Assembly: GCA_018302335.1 (NCBI GenBank)
Contig: JAGVZT010000001.1
Span: 3,193-67,192, forward strand
Source of the DNA: Candidatus Woesearchaeota archaeon
GTDB lineage: Archaea; Nanobdellota; Nanobdellia; Woesearchaeales; JAGVZT01
Reading direction: 5' to 3'
DNA: 64,000 nt
In this document: positions 1 through 54,671 of the stretch, piece by piece
Position numbering within the stretch: the stretch's first letter is position 1
Layout of the letters: every line of letters starts with the position of its first letter
The notes under the pieces: generated by a model
What the model saw: the letters and a program-made list of their open reading frames with translations, nothing else
Databases searched by the model: none
Told to the model about the DNA's origin: nothing
Program-made: the position numbers and the translations under genes

Positions 1-254
1 CCGGTGTCCGCGTCCGCGATGCACGGCATGGATGTCCCGAGGGCGATCGCCCCGGAAAGCTCCGCCATCTCGGTCATGGTGAGGAGTTCGATGTCCGGAA
101 GCCCGCGCATCGCGGTGAGCGCCGCGCCCGAGATGTACGCGGCCTTGAATCCCAGACGCTCGGCGAGCTTCGCGGAAAGCGGGGAGAAGCATCCGGGCAT
201 CACCACGATGTCCTTTCCCGCGAGCAGCTTCCTGAAGTCCTCAGCCCTGGTCAT
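1..254 (-). CDS. PEP-mutase / isocitrate-lyase superfamily protein (2-methylisocitrate lyase-like). Only the N-terminal ~84 codons are present; the gene runs off the left edge.
   Basis: Reverse-strand ATG at 252-254 translates to MTRAEDFRKLLAGKDIVVMPGCFSPLSAKLAERLGFKAAYISGAALTAMRGLPDIELLTMTEMAELSGAIALGTSMPCIADADTG. The amphipathic N-terminus and DADTG metal-binding motif are typical of the PEP mutase/ICL family. Tight junction with the upstream ACAD gene. Confidence 0.6.
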   Translation of the reverse strand, partial: MTRAEDFRKLLAGKDIVVMPGCFSPLSAKLAERLGFKAAYISGAALTAMRGLPDIELLTMTEMAELSGAIALGTSMPCIADADT

Positions 255-1410
255 GCTGCGCCTCCTTCAACGCGAATTTCGCTATGACGAGCCGGAGAAT
301 CTCCGAGGTGCCTTCGCCGATGGTCATCAGCCGGGCGTCGCGCCAGTGGCGGTGCACCTCGCCCTCCTCGGTGTAGCCCCTGCCGCCGTGCAACTGGAGC
401 GCGAGGTCGCAGACGCGCAACGCCGCTTCCGACGCCACGAGCTTCGCCTGCGCTGCCTCGCTCGCGGCCTCGTCCCCGCGCCCCTTCAGCGCGCCAGCGT
501 GATAGGTGAGCGCCCGTGCGGCGGCCAGGGAGCTCTGCATCTCCGCGAGCTTCATCTGGCTCTCCTGGAATTCCGCGAGCGGCCTCCCGAACTGCTTCCG
601 TCGGGAGACGTGCAGCAGCGTCTTCTCGAACGCTGCTTGGCCTATACCGAGCGCCTGGGCGGCGATGCTCAGCCTTCCGTGGTTGAGGATGGACTTGGCG
701 ATGTCGAAGCCCTCTCCGGGCTTGCCCAGCATGGCATCCTCCGGGAGCTTGGCGTTCTCGAACAGTATCTCTCGCGTGGAGCTGCCCCGCACTCCCAGGG
801 TCTCGAAGCGGTGGCCGAAGGTCATGCCCTTGACCTTTTCGGTGAGGAAGGCGGTGATGCCCTCGGGAGCGCGGGCGAAGATGAGGTACACCTCGGCCTG
901 GCCGGAATTGGTCGCGTAGGTCTTCTTTCCGCTGAGGGTATAGCCTCCCTTTCCCGGCAGCGCGCTGCACTGGATGCCTCCCGCGTCGGACCCTGCCTCT
1001 GGTTCAGAGAGGGAGAAGCACGCGAGCTTCTTCCCGGAGACCAGTCCGGTGAGAAAGCGCTTCTTCTGCGCAGGAGACCCGAAGCGCTCCACTCCCCTGG
1101 CGACGGCGCCGTGGATGCCGGATGCGAGCGCGGTCGAAGCGCAGGACTTCGCGACGTGCTCGGTGCACGCGAGCGCAACCGGATAGGGAAGCCCCCGGCC
1201 GCCGCTCTCCTTCGCGAAGGACGTCGCGGTGAAGCCCTTCGCAGCGAGCTTCTTCAGGCTCTCGCCGGGAAACTCGCGCTCAGCGTCGATGCGCGCTGCG
1301 CTCGGCGCAATCTCCCTCGCGCAGAACGCCGCGAAGTCCTCCAGCAGGCCGCAGTGCGCCTCGAGGCCCAGGGACACGAGGAGTTTCTTCTGCTCCGCGA
1401 GATGGCTCAT
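241..1410 (-). CDS. acyl-CoA dehydrogenase
   Basis: 389-aa product starting MSHLAEQKKLLVSL at an internal ATG of the 455-aa track ORF; upstream ORF residues are R/G-rich junk. Motifs GIHGAVARG, FSLSEPEAGSD and catalytic-base region YTEEGEV are classic ACAD. ATGA overlap with the DUF35 gene stop. Confidence 0.9.
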   Translation of the reverse strand: MSHLAEQKKLLVSLGLEAHCGLLEDFAAFCAREIAPSAARIDAEREFPGESLKKLAAKGFTATSFAKESGGRGLPYPVALACTEHVAKSCASTALASGIHGAVARGVERFGSPAQKKRFLTGLVSGKKLACFSLSEPEAGSDAGGIQCSALPGKGGYTLSGKKTYATNSGQAEVYLIFARAPEGITAFLTEKVKGMTFGHRFETLGVRGSSTREILFENAKLPEDAMLGKPGEGFDIAKSILNHGRLSIAAQALGIGQAAFEKTLLHVSRRKQFGRPLAEFQESQMKLAEMQSSLAAARALTYHAGALKGRGDEAASEAAQAKLVASEAALRVCDLALQLHGGRGYTEEGEVHRHWRDARLMTIGEGTSEILRLVIAKFALKEAQHDQG

Positions 1411-2099
1411 GCCGGGACGAAGTAGACGTCGCTCGCGAGGAGTTTCGCGTTGCGACGGAACTGCGCCTTCACCTCCATGCCCACGGCGATGCCGTCCTGC
1501 CCGACGCCCACGAGCCGCGAGAGCAGCAGGGTATCCGCTCCCTCGAACTCGACGAGGACGAGATTGAACGGCGTCTCCTTGAGGAACTCCTGGGAGCCGA
1601 AGTAGCATGTCGTCCAGGAGTGCACCTTCCCCTTCAGCGGAAGCTCAATCCAGCGCGTCTTCTCCCCGCAGCGCATGCAGTGTCCCTTGGGCGTCGCAAA
1701 GGTGTAACGGCAGTGGATGCACCGCGTGCCCAGCAGCCTGCCGTTGGCGAGTCCCGCGAAGAACGGCGAGTCCTGGGCGTAGCTGTGCAGGTACTCCATC
1801 TCGTAGTGCCAGCGGATGACCAGCGGCGACATGCCATCGAGATGGGCGAGGTCCTTCGGGAAGGGGATGCGGAACGCCGAGTTTCCGTCCTCGGTCTCCG
1901 GAAGCCTGACCTTGCCCCGGAGATTTCCCGCGCTCACCGTGCCGACGCCCTGGGCCCTCTTGGCTGGCTTCGCCTTCGGCATCCTGCGCAGGGCCTTCTC
2001 CAGCGCTGGCCGCAGAGTCTCCGTGCGATTCCTGCTTGTCGGTCTTCTCGGAGGGCTCTTCCCGGCTTTCTTTTGGATTTTCTTGGACATCGTCACCAC
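1407..2099 (-). CDS. DUF35 OB-fold/zinc-ribbon protein (thiolase/HMG-CoA-synthase-associated scaffold), with an unusual K/R/P-rich N-terminal extension
   Basis: C-terminal ~140 aa carry a CxxC...CxxC ribbon (CIHCRYTF...CMRCGEKT) followed by an OB-fold-like region, as in archaeal DUF35 proteins encoded beside thiolases. 7-bp overlap with the thiolase stop; an internal start (MSPLVIRW, around 1832) is possible. Confidence 0.7.
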   Translation of the reverse strand: MVTMSKKIQKKAGKSPPRRPTSRNRTETLRPALEKALRRMPKAKPAKRAQGVGTVSAGNLRGKVRLPETEDGNSAFRIPFPKDLAHLDGMSPLVIRWHYEMEYLHSYAQDSPFFAGLANGRLLGTRCIHCRYTFATPKGHCMRCGEKTRWIELPLKGKVHSWTTCYFGSQEFLKETPFNLVLVEFEGADTLLLSRLVGVGQDGIAVGMEVKAQFRRNAKLLASDVYFVPA

Positions 2100-3379
2100 C
2101 CCCTCTCCAGCACGCTCACCGCGACATAGGTGCCGGTGCCTGCGTGCGAGTGTATCGCTCCCCGGCGCGGGTCCTTGAGCTGCAGCGAATCGTCACGGAA
2201 ATGCTTCCCTACGGTGCCCTGGAGCTGCCAGAGGGCAAAGACCGACTGCATCAGTCCCGTTGCACCGACCGGATGGCCGCACGCCAGCAGTCCGCCCGAG
2301 GGATTCACCGGGACGACGCCCTGCTCGCCCGTGAATTCGAGGCCATAGCGGACCTTGGGCATGAACGGCGCGCCTGTCTCCACGAAAGGCCCTCCTTCCC
2401 CGTATCTGCAGAGGCCCATGTCCTCGTAGGTCTGGATCTCGCTGCTGGTGTAGGCATCGTGCAGCTCCACGAAGTCGAGCTCCTCCAGGGGATTCTTGAT
2501 GTCTGCCTGCTCGTATGCCATCCTGCTCGCGGCGCGTCCCGCGCGAAAGGAGTGCACCCCTGGGTATTTCAGGTGGGCATAGTCACTTTTCTTCTCGTGC
2601 GGCAGGAGCATGACCTCGCCGTGGGGGCGGTCCGCCATCCGCATCGCGTCCGTGCCCGTGCCTACCCCGGTGATGCGCACCGGCCTCTTGGCGAAAGAAA
2701 ACGCGGTGTCCTTGTCGCACAGGAGCGCGACCGCCGCGCCCTCCGACATGGTGCAGATGTCCAGCAGCGTCAAGGGATATGATACCATCGGGGCGCTGCG
2801 CACCTCCTTCACGGTGTACGTCCCTGGATACTGCGCGTAGGGGTTGTGCTCGGCGTTCTTGTGGTTCTTCACCGAGACCATGGCGAACTGCTCGGGCGTG
2901 GTGCGGAACTCGTGCATGTGCCGCACCGCCATCATCGCGTAGTATCCCGTGTAGAATCCGCCGACCGGATAGTCGAAGTTCGTGTCGGACGCGAGCGCGA
3001 TGAACTCGTTGCCTTTCCAGGTGTTCACGTGCGCCATCGTCTCCCATCCGAGCGCGGCGCAGCACTTCATCCTTCCGGACGCAATCTCACGCCAGGCCGC
3101 CTGGAAGCCCAGGCCCCCGGTGGCGCCTCCGCCCTCGACGCGATGGCCGGGTTTCGGGCAGAGCCCGAGGTAGTCCTGTACCATCGCCCCTCCCATGAGC
3201 TGCCGCAGGAAATGGTCGGAGAAGTACGAGGAGACGCTCCCGTCGATGTCCTTTGTCTCCATCCCGACATCTCCAAGAGCGTAGTCGAAGGCCTCCTTGA
3301 CGAGCACCTGGAAACTCTTCTCCGGATGCGCCTTTGCGAATTTCGTCACACCGCCCGCAATCATATAGACCTCGTTCAT
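2093..3379 (-). CDS. thiolase, archaeal/SCP-x type (acetyl-CoA C-acyltransferase)
   Basis: Product [23 protein letters not shown]... with the thiolase active-site Cys region and C-terminal GHPVGATG. The track ORF (782 aa) is an artefactual fusion; the true start is the ATG in an ATGA overlap with the stop of the next thiolase at 3376-3379. Confidence 0.85.
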
Positions 3380-4599
3380 CTGCTGACCTCCATCGCCACC
3401 GCGCCGCCGCCGCCGAGGCAGAGGGTCGCGAGCCCTCGTTTCTCGCCGCGCTTCTGCATCGCATGCGCCAGCGTGACCAGGATGCGCGCCCCGCTGGCCC
3501 CTATCGGATGGCCGAGCGCCACCGCTCCGCCGTTGACATTGACCCGCTCCTCCTGGAGCCCGAGCTCTCTGACGACCGCGAGGCTCTGGAGCGCGAACGC
3601 CTCGTTCAGCTCCACCAGGCCATAGTCCCCCACGTTGCGACCGGTGCGCGAGGCGAGCTTCCGCACCGCGAGTGTCGGGGCGGTCATGTAGAGCGAGGGC
3701 TGGTGATGCGCGGAGGCATAGCCCTCGATGCGTGCGAGGATCTTGCAGCCGAGCTCCTCTGCCTTCTTCTCCGACATCACCACCACCGCCGCGGCGCCGT
3801 CGCTGAGCTGCGAGGCATTTCCTGCAGTGATGGTCCCCTTCGGAGAGAAGACCGGCTTCAGCGACGCGAGCTTCTCCATCGAGCTGTCGCGGCGGGGTCC
3901 CTCGTCGTGCTCGAGGCCGCCCGCGGGGGCCAGCTCGGCGTTGAATGCGCCGCTGTCCATCGCGGCCACGGCCTTCTGATTGCTTCGCAGCGCGAACGCG
4001 TCCTGCTGCTCCCGCGTGATGCCTCTCGAAGCGAGCCCCTCGGCAAGGGTGCCCATGTGGCAGTCCTGGTAGCAGTCCCAGAGCCCGTCTCTGACCATGG
4101 CGTCCGTCAGCTGGATATCCCCCGTGATGACTGTCTCTCTCTTGCTCAGGGCATCGGCCGCGATGAGCGAATCTTCCCGCGCTGCCACGCGTGCGTCGCC
4201 GAGCTTCTGCCACTGGCGGAAACTGCGTACGAGGTGCGGCGCGTTGCTCATGCTCTCCATGCCTCCCGCGACGATGATATCCGCGTCCCCAGCTGCCAGG
4301 GCCTGGCTCGCGAGGACAATCGCCTTGAGGCCGGAGCCGCACACCTTGTTGACCGTGAACGCGTTCACGCTCTCCGGCAGCTCCGCGAAGAGCGCAGCCT
4401 GGCGAGCTGGATTCTGGGCGAGGCCGGCCTGGAGCGCGCATCCCATGATGACCTCGTCCACCTCGCTGCCCGAGAGGCCGGCGCGCTCCACCGCGGCCCG
4501 CACTGCCACGGCACCAAGTTCAGGGGCGCTCAGCTCAGATAGTGAGCCGAGGAATTTCCCGATTGGCGTCCGCACCGCGGAGACGATGACCGTTTTCAT
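3376..4599 (-). CDS. acetyl-CoA acetyltransferase (thiolase II, bacterial type)
   Basis: [16 protein letters not shown]... with [10 protein letters not shown] (Cys nucleophile), [11 protein letters not shown] and [11 protein letters not shown]. Start ATG at 4597-4599 overlaps the crotonase stop. Confidence 0.9.
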
Positions 4600-5324
4600 C
4601 TGCCACCAGCCAGGAACTCGATGATTTTCTGCTTCGGCTCCCCGGAGGAGAAGCATTCGGTGAAGAGCTGCTGCTCCCGGACAAAGCCGTGGGCGTACCC
4701 TGCGAGGACTGCCAGCTTCGCTCTCCTGAGGGCGGCCTTGCTGTGCCGGGCCATGAGACGCGCGAGCCGCTCCGCTTCCGGCATGAGCTGCTCAGCCTTC
4801 ACGACATGATCCACGAGGCCGATGGCCAGCGCTTGGCTCGCGCTCACCGGCTCTCCGGTCAGTATCATCTCTTTTGCCCGGCCCAGGCCGACGAGACGCG
4901 GGAGACGCTGGGTGCCGCCTGCGCCGGGGATGATGCCGAGCTTGACCTCCGGCTGGCCGAACATCGCGCTCTCGGAGGCGATGCGCAGGTCGCAGGCCAT
5001 GGCAATCTCGTTCCCTCCTCCAAAGCAGTGGCCATTGACCGCGGCGATGATGGGTGGAGCGTCCTCCTCCATCTGCCGGAGGAGGGTGTGGAACAGCCCG
5101 GAATACTCAAGCGCCGTCTCCGGGGAGAGGTCACGGAGCTCCGACAGGTCGGCGCCAGCGCTGAAGGCCTTGCCCCTGCCGGTGAGGATGATGGCCCTCG
5201 CTTCGGTCGAGCAGGCCTCCCGGAGTTCGCGCAGCAGGGCTGAGGAGAGCGCGTTCATCTGCCGCTCCCGGTCAAGGGTGACCACCAGGACATTCCCGCG
5301 CTGCTCAATGGTGACGAATGGCAT
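4596..5324 (-). CDS. enoyl-CoA hydratase/isomerase (crotonase family)
   Basis: 242 aa with [24 protein letters not shown] and [20 protein letters not shown] motifs. Confidence 0.9.
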
Positions 5325-5344
5325 GGCAGGGCCCAGGACGCTGG

Positions 5345-5419
5345 CATATATATATGTTACCCGCGAGGCGGCATCGGGTTCTCCTGGTCGGCTGCGCGCC
5401 GCGAAAACCTTTATTAAGG
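5345..5419. promoter_or_regulatory. bidirectional archaeal promoter region (two TATA-like boxes)
   Basis: catatatatatg at 5345-5356 lies about 25 bp upstream of the minus-strand crotonase ATG (5324). aaaacctttattaagg at 5405-5419 lies about 26 bp upstream of the plus-strand thioesterase ATG (5441), consistent with leaderless transcripts. Confidence 0.5.
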
Positions 5420-5440
5420 GCGTGCCCCGACAGTCTAGGC

Positions 5441-5884
5441 ATGCAAGCGAAGTCGGCGGCCGAGGCCGCGGTGACCATGGTGCGAGAGATGTTCCCGCGG
5501 GACGCCAACGCCAACGGCGACATCTACGGCGGCAGGATTCTGGACCTCTTTGACGAGGTGAGCGGCATCGTGGCGAAGCGCCACGCGCAGTCCCACTGTG
5601 TCACGGCTGCGGTGCACGACATGGTCTTCGAGAAGCCGGTGGCAGTGGGCAATCTCATCCACATCACGGGACGCGTGGTCTACGTCGGGAGGACCTCCAT
5701 GACCCTCCGTATAGAGATGGACCGAGAGGAGCGCGATACCGGAAAGCGGGAGCGCGCGGCCTGGGCGTACTTCACCTATGTCGCGGTGAGGAAGGGCAAG
5801 CCCATTGAGGTCCCGCGTCTCCTCCTGCAGTCGGACGAGGAGAAACGCCTCTGGCACGAGGCGGAAGCCCTGAGGAAGCGCTAG
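5441..5884 (+). CDS. acyl-CoA thioesterase (hotdog fold, YciA-like)
   Basis: 147-aa product [40 protein letters not shown]... with the typical hotdog thioesterase N-terminus. Divergent from the beta-oxidation operon. Confidence 0.8.
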
Positions 5885-14764: not shown

Positions 14765-14813
14765 GTGGTATCAACTGATACCACTTGAACTATTTTGATA
14801 CCATCTGGTATCA
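14764..14813. promoter_or_regulatory. two adjacent perfect palindromes sharing a GGTATCA core (terminator or DNA-binding site)
   Basis: AGTGGTATCA-AC-TGATACCACT (14764-14785) and TGATACCA-TC-TGGTATCA (14796-14813), separated by a T-rich stretch, lying between convergent ahcY and a minus-strand membrane-protein gene. Confidence 0.5.
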
Positions 14814-14838: not shown

Positions 14839-15480
14839 TCAGTCCGAGACTCGCAGGTACTCCAGTTCCATCTCGCCCGTCCGCGCGTGGTAGCGCAGGA
14901 CCAGCTGGCCGTCAGCGTCGACAGGACAGGCGATGTCCGCGCTCGCCGGGAGGAGGAGCATGCCCTTCACGAGCACGCTGTTTTTACCGCACCACAGCTC
15001 TCCCGTGCCGAGCTGTCCCCAGGGGGTGTACAACTGAACACGCGCCTCGCCCGGTGGAAGGCCTGAGAGCCGGAACTCCAGCGGGGCGCTGTCCGCGGAG
15101 ACCACTTCGTCCAGGCGGATGTCCTGCTCTCCCAGGAGTTCGTACACCACAGCCGTACGTGAGGACTGCGGTTCCTCCTGGGGGAGGTAGCTCAATGCAA
15201 TCCCGCATCCGGCTCCGGCGAGGAAAAGCGGCAGTGCCACTCTGAAGGCGGCGCCCACAAGACGTTGGTAGCACGTCGGAGGAGCTGGCTCGAAGCTCAG
15301 CGCTGGCTGGCCGTTCCTGAGAATTTCAACCTTCCCGTCAGGATGGCGCCGCTGCTCCCATCCCTGGGTGCTCTTCACCACGAGGGTGCCGTCATCCTCG
15401 CGCGTGACGGTATCATCGATGCCAATCCGATGGGGGTCATATGAGAAGACATCGCCGCTGGAATCTATGTCCTTGTCCAT
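14839..15480 (-). CDS. hypothetical single-pass membrane protein
   Basis: 213 aa from MDKDIDSSG, with SD GAGGTGA 8 nt upstream. Central TM helix AAFRVALPLFLAGAGCGIALSYL. Last gene of a four-gene minus-strand operon. Confidence 0.5.
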   Translation of the reverse strand: MDKDIDSSGDVFSYDPHRIGIDDTVTREDDGTLVVKSTQGWEQRRHPDGKVEILRNGQPALSFEPAPPTCYQRLVGAAFRVALPLFLAGAGCGIALSYLPQEEPQSSRTAVVYELLGEQDIRLDEVVSADSAPLEFRLSGLPPGEARVQLYTPWGQLGTGELWCGKNSVLVKGMLLLPASADIACPVDADGQLVLRYHARTGEMELEYLRVSD

Positions 15481-15485
15481 TGCGT

Positions 15486-16382
15486 TCACCTCACGCATGC
15501 TGCCGGCTCGTCCCGGCCGAAGACTTTCTCCACATAGTACATCGTCGCGCAGCTGGCCACTCGGCCGAACATGCCTCCCCGCTCCGTGCCGTAACGCTCC
15601 GTCATGTAGCCGAGCAGGTCGCCCCCGCACGAGACGCCGTTGTACGCGCGAGCCATGACCTCCTCCGGAGCGGTGTACCAGCGGTCGATGAGCACGTCAT
15701 CCCTGCCGTCAGGGTCACCGAAAAAAGGGCCCGCATTCCCGAAGACGCCGACGCAGACGTAATGAATGGCTCCAGCGGGTTCTGCGGCGCTTGCCGGCCT
15801 GGTCTCGAAGCCGTTCGCGGACGCGATGGCGACTCCCTGGCTTCGCTTGCGGAGCAGCACCTGGGCGCCGAGCTCCACGTTGTCCGACTCGTCATACGCG
15901 TCGAGCCGATGGCCATCAACGATACTCTCTCCGGTGACGCCGGGCATGACCTGGCCGATTCCTATCGCTCCGGCGTACGAACGCTTGACCTCTCCTCCGC
16001 TGGTGTGTTGCAGGTTGGATTCGATGCGCCAGAGGTCGGTGAGGAAATCCTCGCGGATGCCATAGAGGCATCCGACGCTCGCGATGCGCTCCTCGACGGA
16101 GCCGGCCTCCGCAGGGATGCCGCAGCTGTTCTGCGGCGCCGCCCTCTCCGGCTCGTCCTGAGGGACCTCCTGCGGGGCCATCAGAATGGGCGTCTCCTGC
16201 TCGACCAGTTGCCAGGCGTCGTCGAGCATGGCCGGGTCGAGGAGGAAGCCCTGCATGTACTCGGGGACCTGCGGTTCCGGCCGCGCGAACAGGGAGGACG
16301 CGCGGTGCGCGCCGTATCCGAGGAGCGCCGCCGCAAGCGCCCCTGCGGCGAGGCGCCTAGCGCCTGCGCTTCCGAAGTGCAT
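15486..16382 (-). CDS. secreted lytic transglycosylase (SLT domain) protein
   Basis: 298 aa from MHFGSAGARRLAAGALAAALLGYGAHRA (signal peptide). SLT signature IESNLQHTSGGEVKRSYAGAIGIGQVMPGVT (catalytic E-S ... S.AGA.G..Q.MP.T) plus downstream AYDESDNVELGAQVL and AYNGVSCGG motifs. Confidence 0.6.
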   Translation of the reverse strand: MHFGSAGARRLAAGALAAALLGYGAHRASSLFARPEPQVPEYMQGFLLDPAMLDDAWQLVEQETPILMAPQEVPQDEPERAAPQNSCGIPAEAGSVEERIASVGCLYGIREDFLTDLWRIESNLQHTSGGEVKRSYAGAIGIGQVMPGVTGESIVDGHRLDAYDESDNVELGAQVLLRKRSQGVAIASANGFETRPASAAEPAGAIHYVCVGVFGNAGPFFGDPDGRDDVLIDRWYTAPEEVMARAYNGVSCGGDLLGYMTERYGTERGGMFGRVASCATMYYVEKVFGRDEPAACVR

Positions 16383-16899
16383 AGGCTCCACCGAGGGCTG
16401 CTGCGCTGAGACCCGCCCAGCATGCGAGGGGTATCCTGCTGTCCTCCGGCGCCTGGCCGGTGAGCCCGAGGGTGCTGCGGATTGCCTCGGTGTCCTCGGA
16501 GAGGCGCGCCGCCTGGAGCCTCTCGGTGACGCGCTCCCGGCACGACAGGATGTCAGCGCGCGCCGCGGGGGAGAGCATGACGTACACGCCAGGCTCCAGT
16601 GAGGCATCGCACTCCGGGGCATAGGGTATCGTTGTGTCCTCCATGGCAGCCGCCTCGAGCGCGAGCCCGTCGCTGTCGTGGGAGCGGAACTGGAGCATCG
16701 CCCCCTGCTCCCCTTCCATGGGAAGCATCACCACATATGATGAGGTCATCCTGCTGCGTTCATCGTCGAGGATCGCCTGCGAGCCCTGTACCCCGCCGAT
16801 GGCGTACGCCGCAGCGAGGGCGAGGGCCGCGCCGCCGAGAAGCGCGATGCGCCTCTCGCCGAGATTCCGGACCTTTTCCATAAGTGCCATGCTGCTCAC
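16357..16899 (-). CDS. hypothetical membrane/secreted protein
   Basis: N-terminal TM/signal IALLGGAALALAAAYAIGG and C-terminal hydrophobic anchor LACWAGLSAAALGGAYAL; no domain recognised. Confidence 0.45.
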   Translation of the reverse strand: MSSMALMEKVRNLGERRIALLGGAALALAAAYAIGGVQGSQAILDDERSRMTSSYVVMLPMEGEQGAMLQFRSHDSDGLALEAAAMEDTTIPYAPECDASLEPGVYVMLSPAARADILSCRERVTERLQAARLSEDTEAIRSTLGLTGQAPEDSRIPLACWAGLSAAALGGAYALRKRRR

Positions 16900-17825
16900 C
16901 TCTCCACGTCGATGCCGCTCAGGGTGATGGTGCCATGCGCCTTCACCTCGATGCGGAGCTCTCCCCCTGCCGGGACCGTCCCGTCAAGGGCGAGGGTGCC
17001 GTCGCCGTACATGCTCTCGCTCTCGCAGGAGCCATTGACGCATGCCTCGATGGTGCCGAAGCCGCTGTCCACTCCGGGCTGGTAGCGCACAAGGACACGG
17101 ACCGAGCCCGGAGCGAGTCCATTGAGCACTGCCTCCGCGCTTCCGGAGGAAGTCCAGATGTAGTCGCCATAGCCGCTCTTGAGCCACTCGCCCGAGCGCC
17201 GTACTTCGTCGTAGGAGAGGTGCACGGTATCGCCCGGACCGCTGTCCGGTGGCGTCGGCTGCTCGCTAGACTCCTGCAGCATGGGCTCCTTCGGGAGGTC
17301 GGCTGCGCGCCGCACCAGCTCGGTGTAGAAGCCGAGCGTCTCGCGCTCGTCGTCGCTCAGCTCCGCGATGGCCGCGCCGAAGGCGTCCCGCCTGATGAGG
17401 GTGGCGAGGTCGGGCGAAGCATATGCGGCGATGCGCTTCCCGTCCACGCTGAGTTCGGCCTGGCACCACGGGCCGAGCTGGGCGCAGGCATTCGCGAGGA
17501 ATGGCAGCTGGATGCCGTCGCTGAAAGGGGAGTCCGCGCGCTGCTCCGCGCCGAGCCACTCCTGAAAACGCCCGCGGTCAAAGCTGAGGAACATCCCGCC
17601 GGTGACATAGGGACTTCCGTCCGCGGACTCCTGCCCGTCCGGGCCCACGCGCACCTCGCGGAACGCAAGCAGATAGTGAGATGGGACCTCCTGGTTGATG
17701 AGCGTATTTCCAGACCTCGCTTCCGCGAGCGCAGGCCCGAGGGTGAGTCTCCCCACGCCGTACGCGGCGCCGAGCGCGGCGATGCCCAGGGCGCCATAGA
17801 GCGCGATTCTGCGGCCGGTGTCCAT
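16896..17825 (-). CDS. hypothetical secreted protein
   Basis: ~309 aa from MDTGRRIALYGALGIAALGAAYG (signal/anchor). SD GGAGGTGA upstream and TATA-like cttttaagtgtttaacc further upstream. First gene of the operon. Confidence 0.5.
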   Translation of the reverse strand: MDTGRRIALYGALGIAALGAAYGVGRLTLGPALAEARSGNTLINQEVPSHYLLAFREVRVGPDGQESADGSPYVTGGMFLSFDRGRFQEWLGAEQRADSPFSDGIQLPFLANACAQLGPWCQAELSVDGKRIAAYASPDLATLIRRDAFGAAIAELSDDERETLGFYTELVRRAADLPKEPMLQESSEQPTPPDSGPGDTVHLSYDEVRRSGEWLKSGYGDYIWTSSGSAEAVLNGLAPGSVRVLVRYQPGVDSGFGTIEACVNGSCESESMYGDGTLALDGTVPAGGELRIEVKAHGTITLSGIDVER

Positions 17826-17928
17826 ATCATTCACCTCCTGAATATCGCCACTATGGAATGGTTAAACACTTAAAAGCGTTTCGGTCAGTTCCTGTCTCTT
17901 GCACAGCCATCCAAACATTTAAGAGGCG

Positions 17929-18366
17929 ATGCGAACCCATGCATCCGACGGCACGCGGCCGAAGACCATGGAGGCAGTCATCCACGGACCGATACGCAAG
18001 AAGCAGCTCCCCCAGGAGATTGAAGTATGGTATGTCCTTCCTGCGTTGCGCCGGGAGTATGCGAAAGTCTTCATCTCCGAGCACCATCTCAGCCAGAGGC
18101 AGGTCGCTGCCAGGCTCAAGGTGACTGAGGCGGCGATATCGCAGTACATCAATGGCAAGCGCGGGGATGTGGTGCACTTCAGCGAGAAGGTGCTCGAGGA
18201 GGTGCGCAAGTCTGCCGCCGCCATCGTGGGCGGCAAGGCAGAGCTGTTCCGTGAGCTCGAGCGCGTCAGCCGCACCATCTCGGTGAAGCGCATTGTCTGC
18301 GAGATGTGCCGCAGCTCGAACCAGGGTCTCGATGACTGCGAGATATGCTTCGATGGAAATCATTAA
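17929..18366 (+). CDS. HTH (XRE-like) transcriptional regulator with C-terminal zinc ribbon
   Basis: 145 aa; helix-turn-helix QRQVAARLKVTEAAISQYINGKRG and a terminal CEMCRSSNQGLDDCEIC ribbon. TATA catttaagag is centred about 23 bp upstream of the ATG (leaderless). Confidence 0.6.
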   Translation: MRTHASDGTRPKTMEAVIHGPIRKKQLPQEIEVWYVLPALRREYAKVFISEHHLSQRQVAARLKVTEAAISQYINGKRGDVVHFSEKVLEEVRKSAAAIVGGKAELFRELERVSRTISVKRIVCEMCRSSNQGLDDCEICFDGNH

Positions 18367-23410: not shown

Positions 23411-24156
23411 GAGTTCGGGCCCCACTGGAGCTTCGCTGGGCTGCTCACGTACCGCTCGAGGAACTCTTCGAGCGGGCCGAGGTCCCTCGCCGTCAGCGGC
23501 CTGCCGTCCGGATGCCAGCACTGTGTCATCGCGACGCATATGCGCGTAAGGCCTATCGCCGTCATGCTGTGCACGTCCTTAATGTGCGCGGCATAGTGGG
23601 GGGCACCTATCCTGCTGGGAAAGGAGCGAACCTCGACGTCGTTGCCGGAGCCCTGCGCTGCCCGGTAAGCTACGGCCTGCTGCTCCGCGCTGAGAGGAGC
23701 GGAGAGCTGGTACGCCCCGCCCTTCTCGGGGGTGCGTGGCAGCTCCAGGATGCCGAACAGCCTCTTGCAGAGGTCAAGGTCCTCGCCCTCGGTGAACAGC
23801 CAGTGGTTGCCGCTCTCCAGCTCAGGAATCTGCTCCAGCGTGGTCTCCTGCGCGGTAAGCTGCCGCCATGCAGTGAGTTGGAAGTTGTCCCCGCCGAAGC
23901 GCTGGAAGAATTCGGCTGCGCCCTCCCTGTTGAGGAGCGGAGCATTATGGGAGACCATCGCCAGCGAGACATTGCCGAGCTCCCGGTCCGGCCGGGTGTA
24001 TTTCGCCGAGGCGCGGAGCAGATGGCCGGTCTTGTCGGTCGCCATCAGGGCAAGCTCCGTGCCGAGCGGGGCATCCCCCCGGTGCTGGATGAGCATCTCG
24101 TACAGACTCGCCACGAGACGAGGATTCCGAAGAGCTTTATATATTTTACTACTCAT
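23407..24156 (-). CDS. hypothetical protein (249 aa)
   Basis: Clean ORF convergent with the ATPase (stop codons overlap); no domain recognised. Confidence 0.45.
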   Translation of the reverse strand: MSSKIYKALRNPRLVASLYEMLIQHRGDAPLGTELALMATDKTGHLLRASAKYTRPDRELGNVSLAMVSHNAPLLNREGAAEFFQRFGGDNFQLTAWRQLTAQETTLEQIPELESGNHWLFTEGEDLDLCKRLFGILELPRTPEKGGAYQLSAPLSAEQQAVAYRAAQGSGNDVEVRSFPSRIGAPHYAAHIKDVHSMTAIGLTRICVAMTQCWHPDGRPLTARDLGPLEEFLERYVSSPAKLQWGPNS

Positions 24157-24294
24157 TGATGGAAACTATACACCCAGAACGCGCCCCCGCGGACACGCGC
24201 CAGGTTGGGCAATGCCCAACGTGCGCCTACTCCTATTTAAATAAGATTGTACTTGAATACAAACACTTATAAATAAAGAACCTCCTTTGGCAGT

Positions 24295-25407
24295 ATGCGA
24301 GAGGCAATACGCGCGGTAGCGCAGACAACGTTCGCCAGCACCGGAATCCTGCGGGAGAAATACGTCGCACCCATCGAAGCTTGGCTCTCCCGTCCTGAAA
24401 TCATTGTCGTCAAAGGCGTTCGCCGCTGCGGCAAATCCATCATCCTGCAGCAGGTGGCATCCCGCCTGCAGGAGAAGGCAGCATATGTGAATTTCGACGA
24501 CTATCGCCTGCTCATGCACCTTGACCTGTCGCTGCTGGATGAGATTCTGGCAGCGTATCCCGAGGTGGATTACTTCTTCTTCGATGAAGTGCAGAAGATT
24601 CCGCAGTTCGAGAGCTGGCTGCGTACCCACTATGACATCAAGACGCACAAGAAATTCATCATCAGCGGATCAAGCATCTCGTTGCTCTCGCCCGGTCTCG
24701 GCACTGTCCTCACTGGCAGGAACATCACCTTTGAGGTCTTCCCGCTTGACTTCGCGGAATTCTGCACGTTCGGCGGAGCATCGCTCGAGACCTACTTGGA
24801 ATGGGGCGGGTTCCCTGAGGTGGTGCTCGAGCCGGACCCTGCCAAGAAGCGGCAGCTCCTCACGCAGTACTTCAACGACATCCTCCTCCGGGACATTCTC
24901 GAGAAGCACGGCATCGCGCCGACACAGCAGTTCAAGGCTTCCGCGCAATACATCCTCGCGAACACCGGCCTCAAAATCAGCGCAAACAGGTTCGCGAAAG
25001 AGCTTGGAATCAACAGCCGCACCGCTGAAAACTACCTCTCACACATGATTGATGCGTACCTGATATTCGAAGTGCCCTTCTTCTCCCATAGCGCAAAGAC
25101 GAAGTACCGCGCCGGTAGGGCCTCCAAGTACTACTCAATCGACAACGGTCTGACGACCGCGCTCTCCACCAGGACCAACAGGGGGCACCTCTTCGAAGCC
25201 GCTGTCGCACACGCGCTGCGTGGGCGCGGCGCCGAACTCTATCACTGGTCCGGGAGCCGGGAGGTGGACTTCGTCCAGGGGGATACCGCATACCAGGCAA
25301 CGCTTACCTCCACCGGGGGGGACGCGTTCGCGGAACTGAGCCGGGAGTTCAAGCATATCAAGCGGACCGTGACTGTCACCCCAGCGGGCCTTGAGGTCCT
25401 TCATTGA
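24295..25407 (+). CDS. ATPase of the archaeal AAA_14/DUF4143 family
   Basis: Walker A VKGVRRCGKS and Walker B YFFFDEVQ; C-terminal DUF4143-like region. TATA cttataaataaag centred about 22 bp upstream of the ATG. Confidence 0.8.
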   Translation: MREAIRAVAQTTFASTGILREKYVAPIEAWLSRPEIIVVKGVRRCGKSIILQQVASRLQEKAAYVNFDDYRLLMHLDLSLLDEILAAYPEVDYFFFDEVQKIPQFESWLRTHYDIKTHKKFIISGSSISLLSPGLGTVLTGRNITFEVFPLDFAEFCTFGGASLETYLEWGGFPEVVLEPDPAKKRQLLTQYFNDILLRDILEKHGIAPTQQFKASAQYILANTGLKISANRFAKELGINSRTAENYLSHMIDAYLIFEVPFFSHSAKTKYRAGRASKYYSIDNGLTTALSTRTNRGHLFEAAVAHALRGRGAELYHWSGSREVDFVQGDTAYQATLTSTGGDAFAELSREFKHIKRTVTVTPAGLEVLH

Positions 25408-25666
25408 TGCTGCCCTGAAGAGTGCGTATCGCGACTGGCCTGCTGAACACGACGCTCGCGATGCGCCTGATGCGAGGGTCGCTCTATTTGTCTTAAGCGT
25501 ACCGGCCGCCAAGCCTGAAAATCTACGAGGTGACAGAACGATAGGCGGTGGCGAGCATGTCCTTGCGCTTCTCCAACAGAAGAATCTTCTGAAAGGTTAT
25601 GGCGGGGATGAGTCCGCTTCCTTATACCTGGTCTCGTGCGCAATGAGCTGCTACAAGACCATCCAG

Positions 25667-26191
25667 TCAGGAATCAAAAAAAGGCCCGTGCTTCTCGGCT
25701 TCTTGAAGGAATCTCAAATCCCTCTTGACGATGAATCTTCCCTGGTAATCCGTTGGCTTTTCCTTCTTCAGCAGTTCGATGGCTTCCTTGAGTAGGTACC
25801 ATTCCACCCTGAAACCTTCCATCTGCTCCTCTTGGGTATAGCTGGGCTCGCCCTCTTCACTCTCCGTGGCCAGGAAGCAGGTTGATGTCTGATGCTCACG
25901 AAGCCGACTCTTGTATTCCACTGTGTGACCAAGATGTTCGCCTATGCGTATTCTTGAGCCGATTTCCTCTTCCACTTCCCTGTGCAGGGCTTCTTCGGAG
26001 GTCTCTCCAATATCAATCCCTCCTCCTGGAAGCTTGTGATAGGAAAGCTTCTGGACGTGCAAAAGTGCAATTTTGTCTCCACGTCTCAGGACGCAGCGTG
26101 CGGCCCTGCGTTCCCTCCACGCACCCACCGTCCGGCTCTTCAACCCCACATCCTCGTCTCTCAACTCCAGGAGGGTTATCATCAGAACCAT
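25667..26191 (-). CDS. NUDIX hydrolase
   Basis: Nudix box GGGIDIGETSEEALHREVEEEIG. TATA ttcttaaac lies about 26 bp upstream (leaderless). Confidence 0.75.
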   Translation of the reverse strand: MVLMITLLELRDEDVGLKSRTVGAWRERRAARCVLRRGDKIALLHVQKLSYHKLPGGGIDIGETSEEALHREVEEEIGSRIRIGEHLGHTVEYKSRLREHQTSTCFLATESEEGEPSYTQEEQMEGFRVEWYLLKEAIELLKKEKPTDYQGRFIVKRDLRFLQEAEKHGPFFDS

Positions 26192-28416: not shown

Positions 28417-28576
28417 GCGCTCGCGCCGCAAAAAGGGAGTATCTTTCGGTCGCCATGCTGGGCAATATCCAGGTTGTCTCGTAGGAATACCGGATATCCT
28501 CAGCAACGCGGCCGATCTCCCCCTCTAAAAGACAGTCGGCACAAGATATTTATGCTCGCTCATGCCGAAAGGCGCG

Positions 28577-31219
28577 ATGAAGGCAGCACTGCTTCTCGCC
28601 GCGTTGCTCCTGGCGGGCTACGCAGCCGCCGCTCCGGATGCATCTTGCGACCTGAAGGATTTCCCGGAGTTGTTCTCTTACGGCGAGGCCAAGAACAGGA
28701 ACCTCGCCACGGCGTTGTACTCCATCAGCGCAGCGTTCAAGGAAAAGGACGTGGCCATGACGCGGGAACTGCTCGCGGCGGTCATGGCCACCCTCGCGAA
28801 GGAAGTCGGCGGGGACGCTTTCCTGCCTGTCGAGGAGAACGGCGATTACGGCATGGGCGACAGCTGCGCCTACCGGATAGGCGGGAACTGCAGGAGTAGT
28901 CCCTATGGCGGTGGGGCGGACTACAAGGGACGAGGGTATATCCAGATAACCCACAAGGAGAACTACGCGAAGTACTGCGGTCCGGAATGCGTAGGAACGT
29001 CGGCTCCGGAGCTTGACGTCTGCGGCTGCAAGCACCAGAAGCGCTGCACCCAGACTGACGAAAGCATCTGCCCGCAGGTCATAGCCCTGCGTCCGGAGTA
29101 TGCCGGGAGAATCTTTGCCGCGTATTACCTCGGGACCAGGTCCGATGGCAGCAACCTTGTCCAGCTGGCGCAGAACAGTGAGTACCGCACGGTCGGCAAG
29201 AAGATAAACGGGGGAAGCGGCTACGCGGACGACTTCTCCGGCAAGGCAGGCGATTTCCTCCAGCTCTTCGAATCACACAGGGTGCAGACGAGGCAACTCC
29301 TGGGCTGTCTGGATGTCAGCTCTGACTATTGCACCGAGAACGGCCTTTGCGGGCCGGGAAAGGAGTGCGACCTCAGCACGCACACGTGCGAACAAAAGCA
29401 GCCGCCCACGGTCCCTGCTCCGGAAGGATGCGAGAGCGGGTATCTGTTCTCCTGCAATGACCGCGTCAGCACCGCCATCCAGAGGTACCTGCCAATCGTC
29501 TTCAGGGTCATCGTGCGGAATTGCCAGGACGGATACCTCTACGGGAGCGACCGGCGCTGCCACCCCGAATGCGGCAGCGGTACCTACTGCGGAGGCGATT
29601 CCGAGTGCTACAACGGCCAGTGCCTCTCCTGCGACTCCGGCCATGCCCTCGGGGAAGATGGCCTGTGCTATCCCGAGCGTGCGAGCACCTGCGAGGCAGG
29701 ATATCTCCTGGGTGAGGACGAACGCTGCCATCCGGAATGCGGCAGCAGGGAGTACTGCATAGGCGATGCCGTCTGCCTCGGCGGAGAATGCCTCTCCTGC
29801 GACCCGGGCTATTACCTGGGAACGGACGGGCTCTGCTATCCGTACAACGGGGGGGAAGACGATGCATGCCCCACGGGTTACGTCTATGGCGATGATGAGC
29901 TCTGCCATCCGGAGTGCGGCAGCGGGACGTACTGCGCGGACGGTGCGGTCTGCTACGACGGAGCATGCCTCTCCTGCGACGGGGGTCATTATCTCGGGAC
30001 CGATGGCCTGTGCTATCCGGACGATGGGGACGGAAGCTCCTGCCCAGTAGGCTATGTCCCCGGCGAGGACGGGCTCTGCCACCTCGAATGCGGGAGCGAG
30101 ACCTACTGCGTCGGGGGGTCCGAATGCTACAACGGAGCATGCCTCATCTGCGACCCGGGCAATTATCTCGGAACCGACGGGATGTGCTATCCGGAGAGAA
30201 CCTGCGATGACGGCTATCTCCTGGGGAACGACGACCTGTGCTATCCGGAGTGCGGCAGCGAGACCTACTGCGCAGGCGATTCTCTCTGCTTCGACGGGGA
30301 ATGCCTCTCCTGCGACGGGGGGTATTACCTAGGAACCGATGGCATGTGCTATCCCGAGGACGGCGGCGCGGGCTCCTGTGCCGCAGGCTACATTCCCGGG
30401 GACGACGGCCTGTGCCATCTGGAGTGCGGCAGCGGGACCTACTGCATCGGCGATTCCTTCTGCTACAACGGGGAGTGCCTCTCCTGCGACCCAGGGTACT
30501 ACCTCGGGAGCGACGGCAACTGCTATCCCGAAGGTGACTGCGATTACGGCTACATCCTGGGCGACGACGGCCTGTGCCACAAGGAATGCGGCATCAGCGA
30601 CACGTACTGCACCGGCGATTCCCAGTGCTTCTTCGGGCGATGCCTCTCCTGTGACCCAGGGTACTACCTCGGGACTGACGGCAGTTGCTATCCCGAAAAC
30701 GGTGGCAGCAGCTGCAACTCGGGTTATATCCTCGGCACCGACGACCTGTGCCACCGTGAGTGCGGCAGCAGCGGGACGTACTGCACGGGCGATGCGCAGT
30801 GCCTCAACGGCCGGTGCCTCTCTTGCGACTATGGGTACTACCTCGGGACCGATGGCAACTGCTATCCCGAAGGCGGCAGCAGCTGCAACTCGGGTTATAT
30901 CCTCGGCAACGATGACCTGTGCCATCCGGAATGTGGCAACAGCGGGACGTACTGTACGGGCGATTCCCAGTGCCTCAACGGCCGATGCCTGAGCTGCGAC
31001 TATGGGTACTATCTCGGGACCGATGGGAATTGCTATCCCGAAAACGGTGGCAGCAGCTGCAACTCGGGTTATATCCTTGGGAACGATGACCTGTGCCATC
31101 CGGAGTGCGGCAACAGCGGGACGTACTGCATCGGGGGCTCCATCTGCTACTACGGCCGATGCCTGAGCTGCGACCCGGGGTACTATCTCGGGACCGACGG
31201 CAATTGCTATCCGTACTAG
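28577..31219 (+). CDS. secreted GH19-like (chitinase/lysozyme family 19) domain protein with ~13 tandem cysteine-rich repeats
   Basis: Signal peptide MKAALLLAALLLAGYAAAA. GH19 signature YKGRGYIQITHKENY (compare [FY]GRGPIQ[IL][ST]xNxNY) and catalytic-Glu region ATLAKEVGGD. From about aa 300 on there are 54-58-aa repeats CHPECGSGTYCxGDSxCYNGxCLSCDxGYYLGTDGxCYPE. TATA atatttat centred about 27 bp upstream of ATG 28577. Confidence 0.8.
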   Translation: MKAALLLAALLLAGYAAAAPDASCDLKDFPELFSYGEAKNRNLATALYSISAAFKEKDVAMTRELLAAVMATLAKEVGGDAFLPVEENGDYGMGDSCAYRIGGNCRSSPYGGGADYKGRGYIQITHKENYAKYCGPECVGTSAPELDVCGCKHQKRCTQTDESICPQVIALRPEYAGRIFAAYYLGTRSDGSNLVQLAQNSEYRTVGKKINGGSGYADDFSGKAGDFLQLFESHRVQTRQLLGCLDVSSDYCTENGLCGPGKECDLSTHTCEQKQPPTVPAPEGCESGYLFSCNDRVSTAIQRYLPIVFRVIVRNCQDGYLYGSDRRCHPECGSGTYCGGDSECYNGQCLSCDSGHALGEDGLCYPERASTCEAGYLLGEDERCHPECGSREYCIGDAVCLGGECLSCDPGYYLGTDGLCYPYNGGEDDACPTGYVYGDDELCHPECGSGTYCADGAVCYDGACLSCDGGHYLGTDGLCYPDDGDGSSCPVGYVPGEDGLCHLECGSETYCVGGSECYNGACLICDPGNYLGTDGMCYPERTCDDGYLLGNDDLCYPECGSETYCAGDSLCFDGECLSCDGGYYLGTDGMCYPEDGGAGSCAAGYIPGDDGLCHLECGSGTYCIGDSFCYNGECLSCDPGYYLGSDGNCYPEGDCDYGYILGDDGLCHKECGISDTYCTGDSQCFFGRCLSCDPGYYLGTDGSCYPENGGSSCNSGYILGTDDLCHRECGSSGTYCTGDAQCLNGRCLSCDYGYYLGTDGNCYPEGGSSCNSGYILGNDDLCHPECGNSGTYCTGDSQCLNGRCLSCDYGYYLGTDGNCYPENGGSSCNSGYILGNDDLCHPECGNSGTYCIGGSICYYGRCLSCDPGYYLGTDGNCYPY
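29555..31216 (+). repeat. coding tandem repeat (~162-174 bp period, ~11-13 copies; the last three copies are nearly identical at DNA level)
   Basis: Visible as recurring tgccatccggaatgcggcagcgggacgtactgc...tgcctctcctgcgac...tgctatccc units. Copies at about 30700-30850, 30850-31000 and 31000-31150 differ by only a few bases, suggesting recent expansion or homogenisation. Confidence 0.85.
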
Positions 31220-31306
31220 GCAACCGCGCTGACGGCAACTTTCACCAGCGCAACAAACTATATAAACGCGCGACGCGCTGAGCACCCTGCGGCAGAGCCG
31301 CGAGAG

Positions 31307-33250: not shown

Positions 33251-34416
33251 ACCTGCGCGAGGAGGTGGCCGAGCTTCTCCTTCTTCGAGCGGAGATACGC
33301 CCGGTTGGTCCGCGTGGGCCGGACCTCGAGAGGAACGCGCTCAATCACGCGGATTCCCGCTTCTTCCAGAGCGGAGATTTTCGCGGGATTGTTGGTCATC
33401 AGCCGCACGGAGCGCACCCCGAGGTCGGCCAGCATCGCCGCCGCGACGCCGTAGTCACGCTCGTCCGGGCGGAAGCCGAGATGCTCATTGGCCTGCACCG
33501 TATCGAGCCCGCGGTCCTGTAGGGCGTACGCACGGAGCTTGTTCGCGAGCCCGATGCCGCGGCCCTCCTGCCGGATGTAGAGCAGCACTCCCCCCTCTTT
33601 TGCGACAGCGCGCATCGCCTGCCGGAGCTGGGGCCCGCAGTCGCAGCGCTGCGAGAGCAGCGCCTCTCCGGTGAGGCATTCCGAGTGCACGCGGACAAGC
33701 GCTCCGTCCTTGACCTCGCCGCTGACGAGCGCGAGGTGGTGGGTGTCCGCGCGGTAGAGATGCAGGTCGAAGCTGCCGAACGGCGTCGGCAGGACAGTCA
33801 GGGCCTCCCATGCGGAGCGCTTCCGGAAGGCGATGAGGTCCGCGATGGAGACTATCTTGAGCCCATGCCGATGTGAGAACTCCTCAAGCTGCGGTATGCG
33901 CATCATCCCGCCATCGTCCGCGCAGAGCTCGCAGATGACTCCCGCGGGAGAGAGGCCGGCGAGGGAGCAGAGGTCCACCGCAGCCTCGGTATGCCCTGGA
34001 CGCGAGAGCACCCCTCCCGTTTCGGCGTGCAGGGGGAAGACATGCCCTGGCCTCCGGAGGTCTCCGGGCTTGGTGTCCGGAGCGAGCAGGGCCAGGATGG
34101 TCCGCGCCCGGTCTGCTGCGGAGACCCCGCTGGCCGTCCCGTGCCGGGCGTCCACGCTGACGGTGAACTTGCACTGCTGGCTCTCGGTGTTCGCTGCGAC
34201 CATCTCCGGCAGCTCCAGCGCAGCGAGACGCTGAGCGTTCATCGGGACGCAGACCAGTCCGGAAGCATGGCGCATCATGAACGTCAGTTTCTCAGCAGAG
34301 GCGAACTGCGCTGCAAGGAGCAGGTCGCCTTCGTTCTCGCGCTCGGTGCTGTCCACCACGATGAGCATCTCTCCTCGGCGCAGCGCATCGAGCGCCTCGG
34401 GGATGGGGCAGCTCAT
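33247..34416 (-). CDS. ribBA: bifunctional 3,4-dihydroxy-2-butanone-4-phosphate synthase / GTP cyclohydrolase II
   Basis: N-terminal RibB motifs (RENEGDL, HTEAAVDL) and C-terminal RibA motifs (zinc-site CxxC, Q...LMTNNPAK). Confidence 0.9.
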   Translation of the reverse strand: MSCPIPEALDALRRGEMLIVVDSTERENEGDLLLAAQFASAEKLTFMMRHASGLVCVPMNAQRLAALELPEMVAANTESQQCKFTVSVDARHGTASGVSAADRARTILALLAPDTKPGDLRRPGHVFPLHAETGGVLSRPGHTEAAVDLCSLAGLSPAGVICELCADDGGMMRIPQLEEFSHRHGLKIVSIADLIAFRKRSAWEALTVLPTPFGSFDLHLYRADTHHLALVSGEVKDGALVRVHSECLTGEALLSQRCDCGPQLRQAMRAVAKEGGVLLYIRQEGRGIGLANKLRAYALQDRGLDTVQANEHLGFRPDERDYGVAAAMLADLGVRSVRLMTNNPAKISALEEAGIRVIERVPLEVRPTRTNRAYLRSKKEKLGHLLAQV

Positions 34417-44787: not shown

Positions 44788-44807
44788 GCCGGAGGGGAAG
44801 CGCCCGG

Positions 44808-44849
44808 GGTATAAGAATCTTCGGATGAAATCAACCAGATGGTTGATTT
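44808..44849 (+). promoter_or_regulatory. shared divergent promoter with a perfect 10-bp-arm palindrome (candidate Lrp operator)
   Basis: gggtataagaatc TATA box followed by AAATCAACCA-GA-TGGTTGATTT (44828-44849), about 55 bp upstream of the lrp-family gene's ATG. Confidence 0.5.
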
Positions 44850-54668: not shown

Positions 54669-54671
54669 CGC

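Follow-up and report, generated by a model that had tools for sequence, protein, structure and literature searches.

Lytic transglycosylases (LTs) of the murein type have been under discussion in DPANN archaea since 2013-2015. According to published work, their domains recur in Woesearchaeota, Pacearchaeota and other DPANN, and binding or degradation of bacterial walls has already been proposed for the SLT proteins of these archaea (PMC8204110, PMC9723730). The LTs grouped as fam00969 by Castelle 2021 are large (up to ~3000 aa), extracellular and often multi-domain proteins (NlpC/P60, GH25), which are enriched in the smallest genomes (PMC8204110), and Vigneron et al. 2022 reported GH23 genes in metagenome-assembled genomes (MAGs) of Woesearchaeota and argued for predation on bacteria (PMC9723730). 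The DPANN SLT work was also cited by Strock et al. 2025 with respect to archaeal peptidoglycan hydrolases (PMC12352652). Proposals that DPANN archaea interact with bacteria are based chiefly on what the genomes encode, and domains that cut peptidoglycan are among the main arguments. In this article, we describe a compact SLT gene, designated g2, on a contig of Candidatus Woesearchaeota archaeon, of which a stretch of 64 kb (the window, to which all positions refer) was analysed. g2 belongs to a cassette of four genes, all located on the minus strand in the order g4-g3-g2-g1. An earlier note on this DNA, made from the sequence alone, had called murein-type LTs unusual in archaea, which is correct in general and does not hold for Woesearchaeota, Pacearchaeota and other DPANN, where they are recurrent (PMC8204110, PMC9723730). 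The genes of the cassette are:

16896-17825, minus strand: g4, 309 aa, from the open reading frame (ORF) and its translation
16357-16890, minus strand: g3, 177 aa, from the ORF and its translation
15486-16382, minus strand: g2, 298 aa, SLT/GH23 protein, from the ORF and its translation
14839-15498, minus strand: g1, 219 aa; the start chosen by NCBI lies six codons later and gives 213 aa

The four genes overlap or abut, as had been described before: a gap of 5 nt separates g4 from g3, 26 nt are shared between g3 and g2, and 13 nt between g2 and g1. In NCBI, the proteins are found as MBS3163816-19 of 'Candidatus Woesearchaeota archaeon', and MBS3163817.1 (g2) is already named 'lytic transglycosylase domain-containing protein'. 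An alternative reading of g2 with 378 aa, which has an extra Arg/Ser/Pro-rich N-terminus overlapping g3, is used by no gene caller. The g2 protein has an Ala-rich N-terminal segment as a weak anchor, then a linker and finally the SLT domain, which is the only recognisable domain. Within the domain region, three features are of importance here:

15513-16100, minus strand: SLT/GH23 catalytic domain of g2 (residues ~95-290), from family-level profiles
16017-16022, minus strand: codons of E121-S122, the predicted catalytic Glu-Ser, from the alignment
15663-15836, minus strand: family-specific insertion of ~55 residues (residues ~183-240, IASANGFETR...WY), from hhalign and a gap in the MAFFT alignment

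The assignment of a genuine GH23/SLT lytic transglycosylase domain to g2, a prediction from sequence comparison, is settled by family-level profiles and not by the Pfam score. When the profile of the g2 family was searched against 1.84 billion proteins, 42 remote matches were obtained (best E 3.7e-12), all of them at profile positions ~100-200, and PF01464 is carried by 37 of the 42. Alignment of the g2 family to an SLT-domain alignment with hhalign gave a probability of 99.85% (E 6.8e-31); because the template set was chosen with the hidden Markov model of the family, this evidence is transitive rather than independent. A phmmer search of g2 against the PDB returned nothing relevant, and a profile search of the PDB gave a weak match to Slt35/MltB (E 0.14), in which the ES motif of g2 sits on the 'VET' of E. 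coli Slt35/MltB, whose glutamate, aligned with E121, we take to be the catalytic Glu162.

Conservation of the motifs leads to the same domain. The strings IES...SYAGAIGIGQVMPG, AYDESDNVELGAQVL and YNGVSCGG, on which the earlier note had based its call of an SLT signature, all occur in g2. E121-S122 is invariant in the seven-member family, and across 32 and 42 SLT sequences the glutamate is invariant and the serine nearly so. Likewise invariant in the family are G141-I-G-Q144 (G141/G143/Q144), A246-Y-N-G249 (Y247-N248-G249) and Y283-V284-E285, and GIGQ, AYNG and YVE align with the corresponding SLT columns; across the 32 aligned SLT sequences, E, G, G, Q and N are invariant. Family 1 LTs are reportedly characterized, following Blackburn and Clarke, by the motifs E-S, G-x-x-Q, A-Y-N-G and Y-V. 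In the alignment, the four motifs E121-S122, GIGQ, AYNG and YVE of g2 fall on these family 1 motifs (motif I, and motifs II-IV with G-L-M-Q, A-Y-N-x-G and a conserved Tyr).

A structure model of residues 85-298 was obtained with AlphaFold2 (AF2) from a 32-sequence alignment that included remote SLT domains, with a predicted local distance difference test score (pLDDT) of 86.1 and a predicted template modelling score (pTM) of 0.83. The model shows a lysozyme-like α-helical fold with a substrate groove. In a Foldseek search of the PDB, all of the top 50 matches were lytic transglycosylases, with weak statistics (E ~1e-2, template modelling scores of 0.3-0.43). The structurally unaligned part of g2 corresponds mainly to the ~55-residue insertion, which lies between the DNxELGAQ helix and AYNG and was modelled as a small β-sheet with strands at model residues 109-111, 121-127 and 146-152. 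Part of this insertion ('AIA..GF', Y, C) is shared by the Aenigmarchaeota SLT proteins P0032, P0014, P0042 and P0047.

We assign a probability of about 0.6 to the reading that g2 is a membrane-tethered GH23/SLT lytic transglycosylase of the cell surface that acts on bacterial peptidoglycan, for which the topology, the substrate and the lytic rather than hydrolytic chemistry are what we infer. Since the archaeon itself is devoid of murein, peptidoglycan of neighbouring bacteria would most likely be the substrate, and the hydrophobic N-termini and the conserved Cys pairs fit an extracytoplasmic location. g2 would be tethered to the outside of the cytoplasmic membrane, and the single catalytic glutamate E121 of the E-S motif would serve as acid/base on the β-1,4 bond between N-acetylmuramic acid (MurNAc) and N-acetylglucosamine (GlcNAc), in a groove that the GIGQ, AYNG and YVE motifs may line and that the lineage-specific β insertion of ~55 residues may modify. 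Cutting of bacterial peptidoglycan could help the archaeon to break into or hold on to a bacterial partner or prey, or could free muropeptides from wall debris. The genes g4, g3 and g1 would have been added around g2 in this lineage and would probably be co-transcribed with it.

Several results weigh against this reading. The N-terminal segment of g2 is only weakly hydrophobic by hydropathy. PF01464 scored g2 with 14.8 bits (E=0.021), below its cut-off of 21.3, SLT_2 (PF13406) also with 14.8 bits (E=0.017), below 24.3, and the NCBIfam models gave just a local 17-bit match to MltB under the curated cut-off; a Pfam scan at default threshold (E<=0.01) returned no match for g2. The search with PF01464 that had been proposed as a check was therefore not passed, and the SLT signature is less than 'unmistakable', the word used for it before, when judged by this score, whereas the domain itself proved real by the remote matches and the hhalign result given above. 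AF2 modelling of full-length g2 with the 7-sequence alignment reached a pLDDT of 37, and since the good model needed an SLT-enriched alignment, it corroborates the sequence evidence and is not independent of it. The present analysis yielded no evidence of a bacterial partner, and any joint role of g4, g3 and g1 with g2 is hypothetical.

The cassette sits in a genuine archaeal genome and is not a contaminant. The window encodes an archaeal riboflavin synthase (ribC_arch, TIGR01506, above cut-off), a CTP-dependent riboflavin kinase and an archaeal family B polymerase (PolB), which together with the NCBI assignment to Woesearchaeota bears out the archaeal context of the earlier note, and the nearest AdoHcyase proteins among GTDB species representatives are those of Woesearchaeota MAGs (66-70% identity). 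The g2 protein is found on 19 contigs, which were assembled independently and carry identical archaeal neighbours, and the cassette proteins are also present on contigs of the Rifle aquifer data sets (groundwater). The GC content of the cassette (64-67%) lies within the range of the window, in synonymous codon usage the four genes and 26 other genes of the window correlate at 0.82-0.96 (background mean 0.94, minimum 0.82), and their GC content at third codon positions (GC3) is 0.75-0.84 compared to a background of 0.68-0.92. A check of codon usage for contamination, which the earlier note had named as a possible refutation, was thus negative.

The g2 family is tiny: seven clusters were obtained at 90% identity, and at 50% one representative more (~8 clusters). 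Its members are 45-48% identical overall, with ~90 invariant columns in the C-terminal 200 residues. In five related contigs (L007-L011, GC 50-62%), the SLT gene is located at the same locus. On one flank, these contigs carry the divergent gene of an HTH_3 regulator, which is the divergent neighbour of the cassette or SLT gene in the window and in all five of them, followed by PyrC where the contig reaches that far; on the other flank, they carry a convergent AdoHcyase gene followed by Lrp/AsnC and DeoC, with a short insertion in one lineage. Identities between the window and the related contigs are 73-79% for AdoHcyase, 58-62% for the HTH protein and DeoC (58-60% for HTH_3, with 73% over a partial match in L011) and 53-56% for the SLT domain. 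The divergence of the SLT gene is thus similar to that of the neighbouring genes, which argues for its inheritance together with them in this clade. The SLT gene is therefore an old, vertically inherited resident of a small clade of high-GC Woesearchaeota.

Outside this clade, relatives are distant. A pattern scan of GTDB species representatives found no relative of the g2 family, a scan of JGI metagenomes for the family returned the identical sequence only, and 80 AdoHcyase loci of GTDB representatives (~20 of them DPANN) showed neither an SLT-like ORF nor HTH/DeoC/PyrC synteny within ~6 kb. The named remote relatives are all DPANN proteins (Woesearchaeota/AR15, Aenigmarchaeota, Diapherotrites) and comprise an NlpC/P60+SLT protein of 1150 aa from an 'archaeon', a protein of 903 aa from Woesearchaeota and archaeon GW2011_AR15, three Aenigmarchaeota proteins named 'lytic transglycosylase domain-containing', and one Diapherotrites protein; the remaining top matches are metagenomic fragments. 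No bacterial donor could be named among these top remote matches, in which DPANN proteins are mixed with metagenomic fragments. Any transfer of the SLT gene from bacteria is old, as it diverges at a rate like that of its neighbours and as the named proteins nearest to it among the remote relatives also come from DPANN; a horizontal acquisition, as considered in the earlier note, would accordingly not be a recent event.

At its locus in each of the related contigs, the SLT gene is found by itself, with no counterpart of g4, g3 or g1. The partners would have been added around the SLT gene in this lineage only, and of the 'operon' claimed before, the operon-like packing of four genes is upheld and a conserved unit of the partners with the SLT gene is not. 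The SLT proteins of the relatives (L007-L011, P0002-P0008) contain a conserved Cys-containing module in their N-terminal ~100 residues, between the transmembrane anchor and the SLT domain (EEGxCYYLxF...GxEWxxIxCDALExLLEE...AYVDxxG; no Pfam match), and g2 of the window is devoid of it. A derivation of g3, g4 or g1 from this module was considered and rejected, as no similarity was found beyond the transmembrane helix. With tblastn, the g3 C-terminus weakly matched SLT genes of the relatives (E~0.2-0.4), which was judged to be due to chance.

Four other explanations have to be weighed against a surface LT directed at bacterial walls, two of which concern the activity of the domain. The GH23 domain might act on a glycan other than murein (chitin, chito-oligosaccharides or a GlcNAc polymer of archaeal or environmental origin) or be a hydrolytic g-type lysozyme, with polysaccharide scavenging as its role. 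In the structure comparison, GH23 lysozyme and chitinase score nearly equal to LTs; this reading is nevertheless rather unlikely, because the motif set is the family 1 LT pattern, because the best profile and structure matches are LTs, and because no chitin-utilisation genes are located nearby. Alternatively, the domain could be a degenerate, non-catalytic relic that serves as a glycan-binding or structural surface protein, in line with the sub-threshold Pfam scores and the very small, restricted family. The catalytic and groove motifs are all invariant though the members share only ~45-48% identity, which points to purifying selection on the active site and makes a relic improbable.

The other two concern the context of the gene. 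The proposal of the earlier note that the proteins form part of a secretion or conjugation-like apparatus would make the SLT protein a 'space-making' enzyme (VirB1/EtgA-like) of a secretion, conjugation or pilus machine, with g4, g3 and g1 as its parts. We regard this as very improbable: neither within +-10 kb nor in the rest of the 64-kb window is there an ATPase, coupling-protein, pilin, secretion or conjugation gene belonging to such a machine, the neighbours are housekeeping genes that are syntenic across relatives, the SLT gene occurs alone in these relatives, and an archaeon without murein has no own wall to open. That the cassette is bacterial or phage DNA, be it a contaminant, a recent transfer or a prophage endolysin, might be suspected from the overwhelmingly bacterial or phage occurrence of SLT domains and from weak PHROG matches to virion lysins (E 9.5e-4 to 0.06). 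It is effectively refuted by the 19 independently assembled contigs with identical archaeal neighbours, the native codon usage and GC3, and the synteny in five diverged relatives, in which the SLT protein (53-56% identity) has diverged in step with DeoC and HTH (58-62%). Moreover, no phage genes are found nearby, and among viral predicted structures only LT_GEWL/SLT virion lysins were matched, no closer than bacterial ones.

That the three partner proteins are anchored, as claimed before, agrees with hydropathy, from which all anchor calls given here are taken. g4 has an N-terminal hydrophobic anchor (residues 6-25, after GRRIAL), a central domain with two Cys residues, a Pro/Ser linker and a C-terminal domain of ~110 aa (residues ~196-309) that is related to the C-terminus of g1. 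g3 has an N-terminal hydrophobic anchor (residues 13-35, after ERRIAL) and, at the C-terminus, a hydrophobic stretch that precedes RKRRR, and g1 is composed of an acidic N-terminal region of ~75 aa, one transmembrane segment (residues 80-106) and a C-terminal domain of ~110 aa. The relationship of the g4 and g1 C-termini is seen in a Smith-Waterman score of 59 compared to 26.9+-4.5 for shuffled sequences, with none of 2000 shuffles reaching 59, and in a BLASTP E value of 0.002. The domain common to both may bind glycans or be a surface module.

Neither Pfam nor NCBIfam nor PHROG gave a match for g4, g3 or g1; Pfam searches with their separated sub-domains gave nothing usable (the best hit, CatAgl_D1 with E=0.042, is not evidence), nor did a PDB sequence search with the C-terminal domain of g4. 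A search of 5.8 billion clusters with g4 retrieved g4 itself and one fragment only, and no homologue from any other population; for g3 and g1, the clusters at 90% identity have four and seven members, respectively, all from one population. The partners are thus orphans, as shown directly for g4 and judged for g3 and g1 from membership of the 90% clusters only. An extended version of the surface LT reading would be a DPANN-specific GH23 subfamily, marked by the ~55-residue insertion shared with Aenigmarchaeota, which together with the recruited membrane-anchored g4 and g1 (with their common C-terminal domain, which had not been described before) and g3 (anchored at both ends) forms a surface module gripping and opening bacterial walls. 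We hold this to be speculative and unlikely as a whole; if true, the DPANN SLT protein and its partners would represent a genetically minimal toolkit for episymbiosis or predation of an archaeon on bacteria.

Two further observations concern the termini of these proteins. The g3 tail, ..PEDSRIPLACWAGLSAAALGGAYALRKRRR (16357-16430, minus strand), with its hydrophobic stretch and RKRRR, resembles a sortase or archaeosortase sorting signal or a tail anchor; the NCBIfam sorting-signal models gave no match to it at E<=0.01. An Arg-Arg-[Ile/Leu]-Ala sequence precedes the hydrophobic segment in g4 (GRRIAL, 17811-17825), g3 (ERRIAL, 16840-16860) and g2 (ARRLAA, 16350-16360) and recalls twin-arginine (Tat) signal peptides; the SLT homologues of the relatives have no RR motif, and no Tat genes were seen in the window.

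The packing of the cassette is operon-like, and g4, g3 and g1 are probably co-transcribed with g2. The signals and genes that border the cassette are:

17826-17928, no strand: intergenic region of 103 nt that separates the divergent genes of g4 and HTH_3, read from the sequence
17929-18366, plus strand: gene of an HTH_3 (XRE-type) regulator with a C-terminal CxxC...CxxC, Pfam HTH_3 E=7.7e-6
14765-14812, minus strand: pair of stable hairpins, flanked by the stops of the convergent genes g1 and AdoHcyase, from sequence and RNA fold

On the g4 strand of the intergenic region (17826-17928), a TATA-like TTTTAA is located ~48 nt upstream of the g4 ATG and is a putative promoter element. Strong Shine-Dalgarno-like sequences are present 7 nt upstream of the g4 ATG (GGAGGTGA) and upstream of g3 (GAGGTGA). 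The hairpin region folds with -26.3 kcal/mol compared to -14.9+-2.7 for shuffled sequences (z=-4.2), and both of the adjacent hairpins share the arms GATACCA/TGGTATC and GTGGTATCA/TGATACCAC. From its position and predicted fold, this region is likely a bidirectional terminator; the repeated hairpin arm could alternatively serve as a binding site. The HTH_3 regulator could control the SLT gene or the adjacent pyrC/pyrD genes. Neighbours of the cassette in the window are the genes for AdoHcyase, DeoC, a Na+/H+ exchanger, PyrC, PyrD, a P-type ATPase and the HTH_3 regulator.

The remainder of the window contains some further features. A riboflavin cluster (33247-36974, minus strand) combines bacterial-type fused RibBA and RibD (eubact_ribD) with the archaeal-type riboflavin synthase and the CTP-dependent riboflavin kinase; hybrid pathways of this bacterial/archaeal kind have been described for DPANN. 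At 241-5884, genes for an acyl-CoA dehydrogenase, an enoyl-CoA hydratase and a 4HBT thioesterase are grouped with an ORF that has a thiolase domain (listed with 782 aa, of which the N-terminal 360 aa have no assignment), a β-oxidation-like set of a kind not usual in reduced DPANN genomes. Three islands of low GC content (55-58% compared to ~65%) at 24000-26000, 44000-46000 and 49000-52000 are possibly acquired or mobile DNA, and the first of them holds an AAA_14/DUF4143 ATPase gene (24295-25407). Large ORFs (885, 647, 641 and 489 aa) with no Pfam match are located at 28562-33250 (plus strand) and 52656-56141 (minus strand), and the region of 52-60 kb, which includes an AAA ATPase gene (56138-58003), shows a strong negative AT skew (-0.13 to -0.21).

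With the DPANN SLT proteins described so far (Castelle, Vigneron, AR15/AR20), g2 shares the host group, the domain type and the proposed extracellular role against bacterial walls, and the nearest named remote relatives of its family belong to them. It differs from the large DPANN LTs by its 298 aa and single domain in place of a large multi-domain architecture, by a genome of 65% GC with β-oxidation-like and riboflavin pathways, unlike the smallest genomes, and by forming a tight family of its own with ~8 clusters. Among the Aenigmarchaeota proteins, MBU5688283.1 (P0032, 332 aa) is the sole remote match over nearly the whole g2 domain (profile positions 89-293); these proteins share with the g2 family part of the insertion (AIA..GF...Y.C) and the motif AYNG[WV][GS]C, but they are only ~30% identical, Cys-rich, and different in their N-terminal regions, with no shared synteny. 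In contrast to the family 1 LTs (PF01464; Slt70, MltC and MltE of E. coli, MltF and Slt of P. aeruginosa), g2 stays below the Pfam gathering score, has the ~55-residue insertion before AYNG and a predicted anchor formed by an N-terminal helix instead of a lipobox, and because its host has no murein, it is not an autolysin of its own wall. Unlike the SLT lysins of phages (phiKZ gp144, PRD1 P7, internal virion proteins, SLT domains of tape-measure proteins), g2 is chromosomal, syntenic in archaea and free of a phage context, and unlike the LTs of secretion and conjugation systems (VirB1, EtgA, P19), it has no apparatus genes beside it in the window or in the related loci.

The features that set g2 apart are thus its small size, the single domain, the tight syntenic family of a high-GC clade with a broader metabolism, the insertion and the lineage-specific orphan partners. 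As LTs have already been reported for DPANN and g2 itself has already been annotated, it is a modest addition and no surprise, which apart from its value as a test protein mostly confirms the existing annotation and the existing hypothesis. This value lies in its being small and single-domain with intact motifs, which makes g2 a practical first protein to test murein cleavage by a DPANN SLT domain and one that is easier to handle than the DPANN proteins of 1000-3000 aa discussed so far.

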